The translations under genes were made by a program, and so were the position numbers. A model generated the notes under the pieces. It was not told where the DNA came from. It saw only the letters and a list, made by a program, of their open reading frames with translations, and did no database searches. A stretch of 64,000 bases of DNA from Paraspadella gotoi (taxonomy: Eukaryota; Animalia; Chaetognatha): NCBI GenBank assembly GCA_051294375.1, contig JBJCIZ010000239.1, positions 1,692,581 through 1,756,580 of the forward strand, given 5' to 3'. Below, one piece after another: positions 54,798-62,776 of the stretch; position 1 is the stretch's first letter, and every line of letters starts with the position of its first letter.

Positions 54798-57700
54798 TTA
54801 TTTAGCTTTTCCCTGGTTGGCGACGGCGTCGACGGCCGCAGCCACCTGCTCGTCCGAAGCCAAGTAGTAATGACGAATCGGCTTCAACTCTTCGTCCAAT
54901 TCGTAGACGAGAGGAATTCCCGTGGGGATGTTTAGCTCCGTGATCTCTTCGTCGGGAACGTTGTCTAGGTACTTCACCAAAGCCCTGAGAAGACAAGATG
55001 ATAAATTGTGAATAGATAACATAGAACTATTTTACATTGTGTTTTTTTCCTTTCTGTTTCGTTGTGATTTGATTTAGAACAAAGTTTGAAGAGAGATTTA
55101 ACAACGATTTTTATTTCATAGTGAAACGGACATGTTTCGACTCACATACGAGTCTTCTTCAGCGCCAATTCAATTTATTTTACAATAAAATCTCTTTCTT
55201 TCTCAGCAACAAAAGTAACATTATAAAATTAATTTTACATAATGAAAAATCTTGATCATAAATTTCTTGCAAATGCTCAATAAATGACAAATCAGTGAAG
55301 ACAAAAAAAAAATTCCCAAAAAATTTCCCACCCGCGATTCACAATCTCCGCCCTAAAAAAAGAACCTGATTGAATTGCCATGGGCGGCGATGAGGACCCT
55401 CTGACGGTTCTTGATGGTGGGGACGATGGTCTCGTGCCAGTAGGGAAGGAATCTCTCGACGGTGTCCTTGAGACACTCGGTGGAGGGAATCTCTTCCGCT
55501 TTGAGGTCCTTGTACTTTACGTCGTTGGCCGGGTGCATGGGGTTGGAGATGTCCATGGGCGGCGGCGGAATGTCGTAGGCGCGGCGCCAGATCTTCACCT
55601 GATTGGATTGAATAAAATTATTAATCGATTGATTGCAACTTCGAAGGATCATTTACATAATCGTTTCCCCCAAATACCAACCTGCGCCTCGCCGTGCTTG
55701 GCGGCCGTCTGGGCCTTGTTGAGGCCCTGCAGGGCGCCGTACATCCGTTCGTTGAGCCTCCAGTGGCGGTTGACGGGAATCCAGTGGAGGCCGAGCGCCT
55801 CTTGGACGTAGTAGAGGGTTTTGATGGCGCGCATGAGGACGGAAGTGAACGCGATGTCGAAACTGACGAAGTGGGCGAACAAAGATTAAATTACGATCAA
55901 ATTAAATACAACAAATCTGTAATTCTGGATGGAATTATGATTCTTATCGAAACCCCCCCACATTAGCCTTTTGTCTCGCCTTTTGGAGAGACAAAAGGCT
56001 AATGTGGTTTCAAATAGAGAATTAACTTACCAAAACCCATTGACGCGCAGCTGCTCGCCAGCAAACTTAGCCTCGGCGACGCCGGTCTCCGACAAGTCGG
56101 CGTCGTACCACCCGCAGAACTTGTTCCTCAGATTCCATTGAGATTCGCCGTGGCGGACGAGCACGATCTTGTAGGGCGGGAGGACATCCTTGGGTTTGCG
56201 GAAATGGAGGCCTTGAAAGGAAAGTAAAGAAAAGAAAAGAAAAGGAAAATAGTATTTCTCGACATCGATTCAGCTTAATATGACACAATGAAAAATAACG
56301 TGGCGTTACTGGTCTCGTGCTGATTTTGTCCCTTTAAAATTGTTTCTGAGCCAAATTAATTGATTATTACTTTTGGTAATATGTGCGATATACACTACTG
56401 GACATTACTGTGTCTGACCATAACCTTGACCATCAACAAAAAAGCTAACTAGATCAAAAATAGTAAAAAGATGTAGCAATATAGCTCGAAACGCTTACAA
56501 AATTTTAGACCATTGCTTTTATAAATGCAAAAAAAATATTAATATTATATGAAACAAAATTTTAATGATAACTTAATAGTTAACACGAAACCGAAGATCG
56601 ATTAATTGTTTTAATCCCATCATTTCTTCAATTTATATGAATCATATAGTTTGTAATTAGTCAATTAATCTAAATAACAATATGAACAAATTCATTTTCA
56701 ATTTTTTTTATCGAATGGGAAGTTTTTCTGCTTACTCCCCTTGTGTTTAATTATCTAATATTTTTGAGGTATTTCCAAAAACCTTATATAATTACTATAT
56801 TTTTCATTTTTTTCCAATTCTTTCAAATAAAAACAACATCATAAAAACATTTTAAATTAATAAAAAAAAATTGATTGAATGATTTTGGAAAAAAATATTT
56901 TGAAACTTGAGAATAATGGATTTCGAGTTAGGAAAAAAATTTTGCAATTCTAAAAAAATCAGCCTCTAGCCTTTCAATTTTTCTAGAGGCTGATTTTTTT
57001 ATTTTTTTGATATTTTGATTTTCTATGCAAAACCATTATTCTCAATGAGCATAAGTCGGAGGAAATTTTTTTCCAACAATTTGAAAAAAATTTCAGCTTT
57101 TTTAATGAGGCTTTTTTTGGGGAAATAAATAAATCAATTATTATACGATGGGTATATCTGAAAGTGATATGTCTCTAAATGACAAAAAAATTTTCTTCAA
57201 GTTTTATTTTAAAATTTAAGTATTGTATCAATAGAAATAAGTGAGATACTCCCGCTTTGCCAAAATTTTATTTAACAAAGATTTGTACTGCGTAGTTTTG
57301 AAAAAAAGTTATTTTATTAAATAACCTTTGAAAGAAAAGAGCTAACAAGATGGGTGTGGTATCAAATTAAAGCCCTAATCATGGGACACCTTTCTAAAAA
57401 AGTTTTATTAAATTAAATCCATAAATCTTTACACAGCTTTTGTTTAAATCAGAGTTAAAAGTATAACAGTTTTTTGCTTTAAAAATTTTAATGAAGGCAT
57501 ATGAAATTTTTATTTTTCTTTTGTAATTTGAAAAAGGAAAGACTGAATTACATTTTGATTATTATTAAATTTTTTTTATTCCATAAAACTGCTTATATTT
57601 TTAAGTTAAAGTAAAAAACAAGCAAAAATTTATATTATAGCTTGATAAAATGTCTTTTTAAATATCAAAAATGATAAATACAAAAATGTTTTCAGCTTGA

Positions 57701-60700: not shown

Positions 60701-62776
60701 CCGGATGAATGGAACGAGAGTTCTTCCGAGATCCCAACCGGCAGCCCGCGTCAATATTCCAATATTGCTTGGTCCCACCGAGGGCAGATTTGTCCCCAGT
60801 CGTCAACGGCAAATGATGCCAACTATCATGCTTTCTCGCCAGAGTGCCACTGTGGCAATGCAAAACTGTGTCCGACTCCAGAACGCAACCAAACGTTTCT
60901 CGATCCCACCATGTTTAATTTTCAAACGCAGTAAAGCGTAAGAATTTGTTACGGCATTGTAAATTTTTATATTTTTCATCGACATTGTAACTCAAAATGT
61001 ATCGTTAAATTGTAAATAAAAAACCCCAGTAACCTGATACAATTCCTCGAGTTGAGTCGCGGTGAGCCAGGTCTTGGGGTCGCTGTCGGGATTCTTAAAG
61101 TCCAAATCGTATTTGGGTCCTTTTTTGCAAAACTCGGAGGCGGCGACGTCCATCCCGATCTTGATCTCGTCCACGTATCCCGCTTTGGCCACCGCCTCCT
61201 TGATCAACTCCAGCGCCTCTTTGTTCTCCAAGATGTTGGGGGCGAAGCCGCCTGAAATCAACGGCGTTTACCGAGTTAATTTTTAAATTTTTTTTAGGAA
61301 TAAATCTCATTTGCATATTTCAGTAATCACCTCTGTTTGAAAAAAAAATATGGCGACCGGGTGTTGTAGGTTTTATTTTTTAAATTTTTATAATTTTAAT
61401 TTTTAGTAGGTCCGCGTATTTTCATTGTTTTACAAAAATGGAATCGAATGTTTTTATAATAAGAATGGGCCTCCAAAAGCCATGTGGAATAAAAAAAAAT
61501 AACTTTACTCAATAAATATGCTTATAAATGTGTTTAACGTCACAAATTTCAAGAGGTTTTAATGTTTCTTTTTAAGTCCAATATCATTTTGGGTCCTCTA
61601 TGATTAGATTATTTTATTGAATTGTTGTCATTGTCGATGTCTTAAAAAAAATGTTCCATAATTTCCTACAGTTGTCGAATTTTGTCGTTCAGCCAAAAAT
61701 ATCTTCCCTATATTGCTCTTTCCAAAAATGTTTTCCATTTCAACCAGTCATACCAGATTACAGATTGTATTGATTATTAACCATATAAGCCTTGTAGACT
61801 TAATAGATTAACTCCCTCACCCTCGTCCCCGACGTTGCAGGCGTCCTGTCCGTACTTCTTCTTAATGACGCCCTTGAGATGATGATAAATCTCGGACCCC
61901 ATCCGCATCGCCTCCCTGAAGTTCTTCGCCCCCACGGGAAGGATCATGAACTCTTGCATGGCGAGCTTGTTGCCGGCGTGGCTCCCGCCGTTGATGACGT
62001 TGAAGGCGGGGACGGGCAGGACGACGTCGTCGTTGCCCGCCAAGGTCGCCACGTGGCGGAAGAGCGGGAGGCCCTTCTTGGCGGCGCCGGCCTTGCAGAC
62101 GGCGAGGGAGATGCCGAGAATGGCGTTGGCGCCGAACTTGGACTTGTTCTCCGTGCCGTCCAGGCGGAGCATGAAGTCGTCCAGGCCCACCTGGTTCGTC
62201 TCGTCGAAGTTTTCGGCGATGATGGCCGGAGCGAGGACGTTGTTCACGTTGTCCACGGCCTTTTGGACGCCTGGAGGTTGGGAAATGATGAAAAATTCGA
62301 AAATGTAAATGAATGTTTAGATCTCCAAAAGAATTGTTTTAATAGGAAATAGTTAACATGACGATCTCAAATTTGTTTAAATAATGATCAAATTAACGCA
62401 TCCGGTTTCACGATTCACACATTGTAAGATGTCCTCACATTCGGAGATAAATGACTCTCTCGCTCAACTTTGTGTCAGCAGCATTAGTTAGCGACAATAT
62501 CCAAAATACTAATCCCTAATTACTTCGCAACTGTAAGAGGGTAATCGATCTCATTTTCCAAGATGATCTCTTATAGATGAGTTGCACTCAAGTTATACCT
62601 TTCCCGTGATACACTTCCTCCTGGTCCCTCAGTTCCAGCGCCTCGTGGACGCCGGTGGAGGCGCCGGAAGGGACGGCGCCGCGGAAGAGGCCCAACTCCG
62701 TCGCGACGTCGACCTCGACGGTTGGGTTGCCCCGCGAGTCGAAGATCTGACGCGCGCGAATGGATTTGATGGTCAT
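54798..62776 (-). CDS. ENO-PGAM: Enolase-phosphoglycerate mutase (dPGM) fusion protein, 9 exons, 685 aa
   Basis: Exons 62599-62776, 61821-62270, 61034-61251, 59192-59413, 58676-58883, 56031-56211, 55682-55862, 55366-55598, 54798-54984. All GT-AG and phase-consistent, total 2058 nt. Exon 6 reads (G)[26 protein letters not shown], i.e. the enolase C-terminus in frame with the PGAM N-terminus. Confidence 0.9.
56277..58531. mobile_element. Non-autonomous TIR DNA transposon in the ENO-PGAM junction intron
   Basis: aatatgacacaatgaaaaat..cgttactg..cgtgc (56277 to about 56320) is inverted at about 58489-58531. AT-rich interior with no ORF; TSD unclear. Confidence 0.65.
59729..60934 (+). CDS. Intronless PRD-class-like K50 homeobox protein nested antisense in enolase intron 3
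   Basis: [60 protein letters not shown]-rich repeats downstream; AATAAA near 61015. Host intron is 59414-61033. Confidence 0.85.
   Translation: MSCPFNFQPNIHRQSGLTSYALGTSPLPITVQPRTTSNNPNGLPQQQRNPRPVFFYPKTNGPNLKRKPRSNLNPDQLRLLSAQFAKNPNLNFDQRVKLARETSLQENVVAVWFKNRRARERKKKKENNSDKKTKNPRNRGQNLETPAPGVTELGRNPNPCDGANASNAATNMTTQQTSAGAIIPETLDETNQRTEWNGLKPSNIQDGLSSRSTDQTQIIQREQFQFLPERSQRLPPRIFPEQTQHDPENFQILPEQSRFLREQLRILPKRPQHVPAPFQFHPQHRFHNEQYQHLPEQCQFLPKQSRIVPEFFIPHYSYDPSCGDPDEWNESSSEIPTGSPRQYSNIAWSHRGQICPQSSTANDANYHAFSPECHCGNAKLCPTPERNQTFLDPTMFNFQTQ

Follow-up and report, generated by a model that had tools for sequence, protein, structure and literature searches.

An enolase–phosphoglycerate mutase fusion gene in the arrow worm Paraspadella gotoi, its marine relatives and a sister enolase–triosephosphate isomerase family

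The genome of the arrow worm (chaetognath) Paraspadella gotoi harbors a gene in which enolase (ENO) and phosphoglycerate mutase (PGAM) are read as one frame. The window analyzed here is a stretch of 64,000 nucleotides (nt) of contig JBJCIZ010000239.1 (positions 1,692,581 to 1,756,580), and all coordinates below refer to it. The gene lies on the minus strand and consists of nine exons that sum to 2058 nt and encode 685 amino acids (aa), followed by a single terminal stop; GT..AG borders are present at all eight introns, and the predicted mass of the protein is 76.0 kDa. This model, rebuilt from the window, reproduces the exon number and total length of the first-pass annotation, which had proposed an in-frame fusion of the two enzymes. 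The protein has no N-terminal extension, and its start resembles that of a stand-alone enolase.

The first coding exon begins at an AG acceptor (62978-62977) with 200 nt of 5′ untranslated region that contain no ATG (62777..62976). The ATG and enolase residues 1-60 are supplied by exon 1 (62599..62776), residues 60-210 with H157, E166 and E209 by exon 2 (61821..62270), which matches Enolase_N and Enolase_C, residues 210-282 with D244 by exon 3 (61034..61251), and residues 283-356 with E294, D319 and K344 by exon 4 (59192..59413). Exon 5 (58676..58883) encodes residues 357-426 with H372, R373, S374 and K395 and ends in phase 1. It is followed by intron 5 (56212..58675), which is 2464 nt long, repeat-rich and only 25% GC. 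The fusion exon, exon 6 (56031..56211), encodes the enolase tail (residues 427-434), the residues DVLPP (56188-56174) and the PGAM start with RHGES, in which H446 occupies 56152-56150. The remainder of PGAM is encoded by exon 7 (55682..55862; residues 486-546 with R497 and E524), exon 8 (55366..55598; residues 547-624 with H619 at 55382-55380) and exon 9 (54798..54984; residues 624-685 and TAA), all again on the minus strand.

The reading of the junction by the first-pass annotation is reproduced in detail: exon 5 ends in TAC GCA G before gt at 58676, and exon 6 carries the enolase tail LHFRKPK and continues through DVLPP into PGAM. The PGAM half was also described as lacking an ATG of its own, and indeed none of the four ATGs near exon 6 (56265, 56187, 56138 and 56040) is in frame with PGAM, while the first in-frame Met of this half, M496, lies downstream of the catalytic H446. 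Both PGAM catalytic histidine motifs, RHGES (445) and AAHGNS (617), are intact as claimed. The GC content at third codon positions stays high through the junction: it reaches 0.84 for enolase, 0.75 for residues 426-437 and 0.81 for PGAM, compared with the 25% GC of intron 5. At the gene level, then, the fusion is real, with one frame and all catalytic motifs present.

Transcript evidence comes from run X1, which like the other two runs was assigned as RNA by guess, contains 0.54 of the words and is possibly not independent of the window. Contigs of X1 bridge seven of the eight introns, with joints at exons 1 to 4, between exons 4 and 5, and at exons 7, 8 and 9. The joint across intron 5 (58676/56211) is not among the listed X1 joints, and a low-complexity stretch at that acceptor was skipped in mapping. 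The X1 contig that covers PGAM is 1351 nt long, of which its three listed pieces account for 1168; the remaining 183 nt equal exon 6 plus 2 nt. A 2-nt AG is common to the ends of exon 5 and intron 5 and marks the point at which spliced and unspliced forms would diverge, and the 183-nt surplus fits a spliced intron 5. At the 5′ end, an X1 contig tracks the genome to 62977 and then carries 29 further nt that were not placed within 53000-64000, a candidate leader or distant exon. At the 3′ end, the untranslated region extends to the limit of the X1 contig (54231..54797, minus strand). X1 contig depths along the gene are similar (183.6, 219.7 and 222.3) and were given no weight, as depth cannot rank gene parts. 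A fused ENO-PGAM mRNA almost certainly exists in this organism.

Membership of both enzyme families was scored over the full length on P0003, a stand-in relative with 87% identity. P0003 reaches 538.5 bits against eno (TIGR01060; cut-off 300; profile positions 1-421 of 425), 381.8 against pgm_1 (TIGR01258; cut-off 81.7) and 403.7 against NF010713 (cut-off 305), with PGAM profile positions 1-245 of 245 covered. In the window itself, exon 2 alone exceeds both enolase Pfam cut-offs (PF03952 and PF00113), and exon 6 passes His_Phos_1 (PF00300), with PGAMs as its top solved-structure matches. The window model retains the enolase motif residues S40, H157, E166, E209, D244, E294, D319, K344, H372/R373/S374 and K395 and the PGAM residues R445/H446, R497, E524 and H619. 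The former serve in catalysis and metal binding, and the latter comprise the phosphohistidine motif RHG, the second histidine (AHGN) and the catalytic R and E. AlphaFold2 folds both domains of P0003, with a mean predicted local distance difference test (pLDDT) of 87.6, a predicted template modeling score (pTM) of 0.79 and a pLDDT of 89 at residues 431-440. The enolase half of this model matches human enolase 2 (4za0) with a target template modeling score of 0.94, and each of the 50 structural matches listed is either an enolase or a complex that includes one. Both halves are very probably active.

Fused relatives are found among marine sequences. A search with exon 6 matched 46 proteins among the 64 candidates scored, and the best six carry Enolase and His_Phos_1; of these six, the two that are not mosaics represent one cluster with 25 members, 15 of them listed, and another with 3. 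Seventeen relatives assembled from nucleotide data (JGI/Logan) are listed, all distinct, and 11 of them are exactly 685 aa long. Those checked are 85-88% identical to the window in enolase and 81-84% in PGAM. Their contigs of 1.7-5.6 kb are likely spliced transcripts because they are too short for the introns of the window's gene. The spacing from RIEE[ED]LG to RHGE is 25 residues in 17/17 of these relatives, as in the window, and enolase is also present in all 21 proteins whose PGAM half is at least 77% identical (of 233 PGAM matches). These comparisons support a single in-frame ENO-PGAM polypeptide that is conserved in related marine sequences.

The junction itself contains nearly no linker. 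Stand-alone enolases have 13-19 residues after RIEE[ED]LG (15 in 43/78), and stand-alone PGAMs have 8-11 residues before RHGE (9-10 in 10/14). As the 25 residues of the fusion equal the sum of the two stand-alone ends, the natural termini have been abutted, with 0-1 residue added and L436 or V435 in the place of the PGAM start Met. The earlier description of DVLPP as a five-residue linker is therefore not upheld.

Several records were removed from counts and trees. P0001, P0002, P0004 and P0005, from protein-level assemblies, were dropped as fusion relatives since they are mosaics, and the enolase-only P0062, P0242, P0346 and P0350 were also excluded. Bacterial-type records with both enzymes (P0078, P0084, P0095 and P0145) were set aside, three of them with garbled junctions that resemble frameshift joins. 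The ENO-PGAM junction pattern gave no matches among metagenome contigs. The best 150 of a search against 50% identity clusters included no member of either enolase fusion family described here and two distant proteins with ENO and PGAM (P0422 and P0430), and is uninformative.

The closest enolases to those of ENO-PGAM belong to a second fusion, in which enolase is joined to triosephosphate isomerase (TPI). A search with the enolase half returned enolase plus TIM in 12 of the 120 proteins listed, and clustering at 90% identity divides the ENO-TPI family into 12 or more clusters. The eno and tim cut-offs are passed in 2/2 proteins tested, TPI motifs are kept in 3/3 checked, and AlphaFold2 gives a pLDDT of 81.4 and a pTM of 0.76. 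The ENO-TPI junction has one spacing in 18/18 rows, which include P0347 from a protein-level assembly source, and no junction indels occur in either family. A careful enolase tree of 44 of the 114 rows gives 100/98 support each to ENO-PGAM with the window (9 rows), to ENO-TPI (7 rows) and to the two together; FastTree on all 114 rows recovers the same grouping.

The ENO-TPI pattern matched one metagenome contig, L001, an intronless sequence of 3149 nt whose open reading frame (79-2124, plus strand) encodes 681 aa and matches P0239. The 26 nt at the start of L001 are identical to the final 26 nt of the chaetognath spliced leader SL2.0 (26/26, compared by eye with Table 3 of PMC2481426). SL2.0 is the main chaetognath leader in that table, and chaetognath leaders resemble those of no other phylum (PMC2481426). 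The ENO-TPI family is therefore placed in chaetognaths, given that L001 starts with a chaetognath leader, and sisterhood on the tree makes the window's gene likely chaetognath as well. No leader match was found in five supplement files of PMC2566580. In run X2, one contig carries the ENO-TPI-type residues F235, Q238 and A360; F235 is present in 11/14 ENO-TPI, 0/11 ENO-PGAM and 0/83 other rows, and A360 in 14, 0 and 0, respectively. A second X2 contig carries I115/A117, which among 108 rows is common only to the ENO-PGAM proteins P0006 and P0061. These contigs give a weak hint that both fusions may share one genome. Enolase was likely duplicated in arrow worms, each copy becoming fused to a different glycolytic enzyme.

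Descriptions of ENO-PGAM or ENO-TPI fusions in animals were not found in the open-access literature, which excludes subscription journals and bioRxiv supplements. In PMC12460157, 'enolase' and 'glycoly' are absent from the main text, and enolase and PGAM from three text supplements, although the gene tables may lie elsewhere. The first-pass annotation was aware of no ENO-PGAM fusion in animals, which stands for the open literature, but the same architecture exists outside animals. Raphidophyte and dinoflagellate proteins (P0097, P0105, P0122, P0164, P0166 and P0154), for which the open literature yielded no paper, join the same two domains: records from Heterosigma akashiwo and Gymnodinium smaydae are ENO-first with a short junction, like the window's gene, whereas those from Symbiodiniaceae and Polarella are PGAM-first. 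The protist fusions are 60-65% identical to the window in enolase and 51-57% in PGAM, and the ENO-first ones have N-terminal extensions of up to ~85 aa. A clade of protist ENO-first and animal fusions is rejected on the enolase half by the approximately unbiased test (p = 5.6e-5), run on a quick LG+G4 tree of 23 rows that includes long branches. The careful enolase tree likewise keeps the animal and protist fusions apart, and a PGAM tree of 45 chosen rows places their PGAM halves on separate branches. Judging from these trees, the raphidophyte and dinoflagellate fusions arose independently of the animal one.

Other glycolytic fusions differ in partner, lineage or mode of joining. A PGK/TPI fusion is exemplified by Thermotoga. 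The bifunctional PGK/TPI family (NCBIfam PRK13962) has a C-terminal TPI, as does ENO-TPI, but it is bacterial with PGK as the partner; ENO-TPI scores 261 bits against it (cut-off 883). In P0074, P0075, P0077 and P0083, PGAM is joined to GAPDH or aldolase and groups with Mya and Intoshia sequences (99 by the SH-like approximate likelihood ratio test), and these proteins may be additional glycolytic fusions of animal or animal-like type. Plant PGAM is of the unrelated, cofactor-independent type. The PGAM-enolase-pyruvate kinase metabolon of Arabidopsis also brings PGAM and enolase together, with reported channeling of 2-phosphoglycerate (2-PG), but it is non-covalent and dynamic (PMC7481185). 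The available text of PMC3527533 describes a dinoflagellate GAPDH-enolase in which enolase is likewise joined to a glycolytic gene; this is a transcriptional fusion with another partner in another lineage. TPI-GAPDH of stramenopiles, cercozoans and Thecamonas likewise combines the enzymes of successive glycolytic steps in a single eukaryotic protein, but the enzymes differ, the hosts are protists, and the protein is often mitochondrion-targeted, whereas ENO-PGAM lacks an N-terminal extension (available parts of PMC3527533 and PMC6198282).

The setting of the gene is compatible with an operon. The upstream RNA contig ends 130 nt from the 5′ acceptor of ENO-PGAM, and ~108 nt separate the 3′ contig end from the AG/ATG of the next gene; measured from these contig ends of one run, the same-strand neighbors fall under the 250-bp operon criterion of PMC12460157. 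Chaetognath operons are on record (PMC2481426 and PMC12460157, in the parts available); according to the latter, they hold 18% of genes, defined as lying <250 bp apart, and duplicated genes number in the thousands. The first-pass annotation had suggested that the fusion formed by stop loss between operon cistrons. The spacing and the existence of chaetognath operons are in its favor, but an unfused ancestral pair was not seen, and an operon origin is only slightly favored.

The region at 1266-54223 contains dense, nearly one-stranded housekeeping genes, as operons would give. Of 23 open reading frames picked by eye, 18 have Pfam matches, representing 13 minus-strand genes and one plus-strand gene; a PALP-family gene and ENO-PGAM add two more to the minus strand. 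The genes encode DTW, ankyrin, ThiF, TPR, a single-exon four-RRM protein, APC4, GT2, KIN17, OTU, Med28, Ist1, DSP, AGK and PALP. On the other side, 63108-63766 (minus strand) is likely the last exon of an upstream gene; it has X1 contig cover and a 141-codon frame (63371-63796) with a hydrophobic end, and it gave no Pfam match. Antisense within enolase intron 3, a stop-free frame of 490 codons (59462-60934, plus strand), partly covered by X1 contigs, encodes a complete homeodomain (PF00046, E 1e-16, from ~59924). This frame could be a homeobox gene that is nested or that arose by retroposition. Near both ends of intron 5 lies a 38-nt inverted repeat, 87% complementary (56277-56314 and 58494-58531), which encloses 2.2 kb of repeat-rich DNA. 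Its two arms may be the termini of a transposon, or they may pair and so loop out the intron.

A mechanism that would connect these observations begins with an early chaetognath in which enolase was duplicated. Each copy would have lost its stop and been extended into the neighboring glycolytic gene, the two probably belonging to one operon, and the start Met of the partner would have been replaced. Enolase is dimeric, and TPI and PGAM pair with themselves in most homologues. The ENO-PGAM protein would dimerize via its enolase half and bear two PGAM heads, and the covalent fusion would fix the enolase:PGAM ratio at 1:1 and cluster glycolytic enzymes. 2-PG would mostly travel the short way between the two by diffusion, and proximity would bring a modest gain at best; the steady-state gain from proximity alone is reported to be small (PMC6345930). 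The first-pass annotation had inferred an enzyme that permits 2-PG channeling. Channeling as the reason for the fusion is so far not supported: the sister enolase is equally tightly fused to TPI, an enzyme that has no metabolite in common with enolase and catalyzes a non-neighboring step of the pathway, so that ENO-TPI cannot channel directly. A dedicated 2-PG channel is probably absent. On balance, the nine-exon frame is likely to yield one two-activity enzyme, enolase plus cofactor-dependent PGAM, whose fusion probably serves co-expression and clustering and not such a channel.

Several points count against this interpretation. The intron-5 joint is missing from the X1 list, the PGAM look-up drew on a small pool of 64 candidates, and the full-length scores and fold belong to P0003 and not to the window's own protein. 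The SL2.0 leader is not present within the window (best 18/26); the ENO-TPI transcript is the one place where it occurs, and the phylum of the window follows from tree sisterhood. There is also P0350, a complete enolase without a fusion partner that shares 83.8% identity with the enolase half of the window's protein, though it looks like a mosaic assembly whose ends match the family at 66-75% and whose middle matches at 76-100%. In Arabidopsis mitochondria, 2-PG was reported to be fully channeled between PGAM and enolase (PMC7481185). The missing joint and P0350 would fit two separate genes or isoforms, with enolase ending in intron 5, PGAM trans-spliced at exon 6 and the fusion an annotation artefact or minor form, as would AATAAA at 58300 and 58247 inside intron 5 and the strong acceptor at 56211 (pyrimidines 16/17). 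Yet read-through past exon 5 gives a 15-residue tail unlike enolase, none of nine candidate acceptors in intron 5 yields an enolase-like terminal exon, the enolase tail is encoded within exon 6, a leader on exon 6 would reach only out-of-frame ATGs ahead of H446, and the relatives are fused too, so that separate genes are very improbable. Instead of paralogues in one genome, the two families could also be orthologues, if two subgroups of arrow worms each joined enolase to a partner of their own. The two sister clades of the enolase tree fit this too, but both types apparently occur in X2, and comparison of the window with L001 shows four-fold sites close to saturation (48/160 alike); this account is improbable.

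The purpose of the fusion permits further alternatives. Abutted termini could fix PGAM against enolase and hand over 2-PG without release, making the fusion a true channeling device; the consecutive pathway steps, the invariant spacing in 17/17 relatives, the pTM of P0003 and its pLDDT at residues 431-440, the independent joining of the same pair in protists and the Arabidopsis precedent all agree with this. The ENO-TPI control, with no shared metabolite, has a similar pTM and an equally invariant junction (18/18), both domain orders occur among the protist fusions, and PGAM is also found fused to GAPDH, PGK, pyruvate kinase, aldolase and TPI, which makes such a device unlikely. Since ENO-TPI gives a pTM of 0.76, the high value for ENO-PGAM is not peculiar to the consecutive pair and was not accepted as proving a special interface. 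Alternatively, the fusion may be a near-neutral by-product of an operon, in which a tolerated stop loss became irreversible once the separate genes had disappeared, without functional gain, as the 0-1 residues added at the junction, the operon-like spacing and the operons and many duplicates of chaetognaths (available text of PMC12460157) would allow. Both fusions have a glycolytic partner, though the neighbors in the window are functionally unrelated, and neither family has a junction indel; a neutral origin is accordingly given a poor chance. A bolder and improbable extension of the clustering hypothesis is that arrow worms have no free enolase and that both copies are covalent hubs pairing via their enolase halves, with self-pairing TPI and PGAM halves producing a cross-linked glycolytic chain or gel. 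If true, this assembly would be a hard-wired animal metabolon that passes 2-PG on inside. Co-expression and clustering of two active enzymes remains the preferred interpretation.

The core glycolytic enzymes are separate proteins in model animals, and the glycolytic fusions described so far are mainly from protists and bacteria. By sequence, the ENO-PGAM gene is a real and conserved fusion whose architecture recurs in protists and whose function is inferred. As enolase has likely been fused twice, to an adjacent and to a non-adjacent enzyme, arrow worms would provide a natural test and control in the old debate over channeling versus co-expression and clustering, in which fused and split enzyme forms are directly comparable. 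The two families also offer a worked case of how animal operons may seed multi-domain proteins, and the enolase fusions could serve as a synapomorphy of arrow worms.

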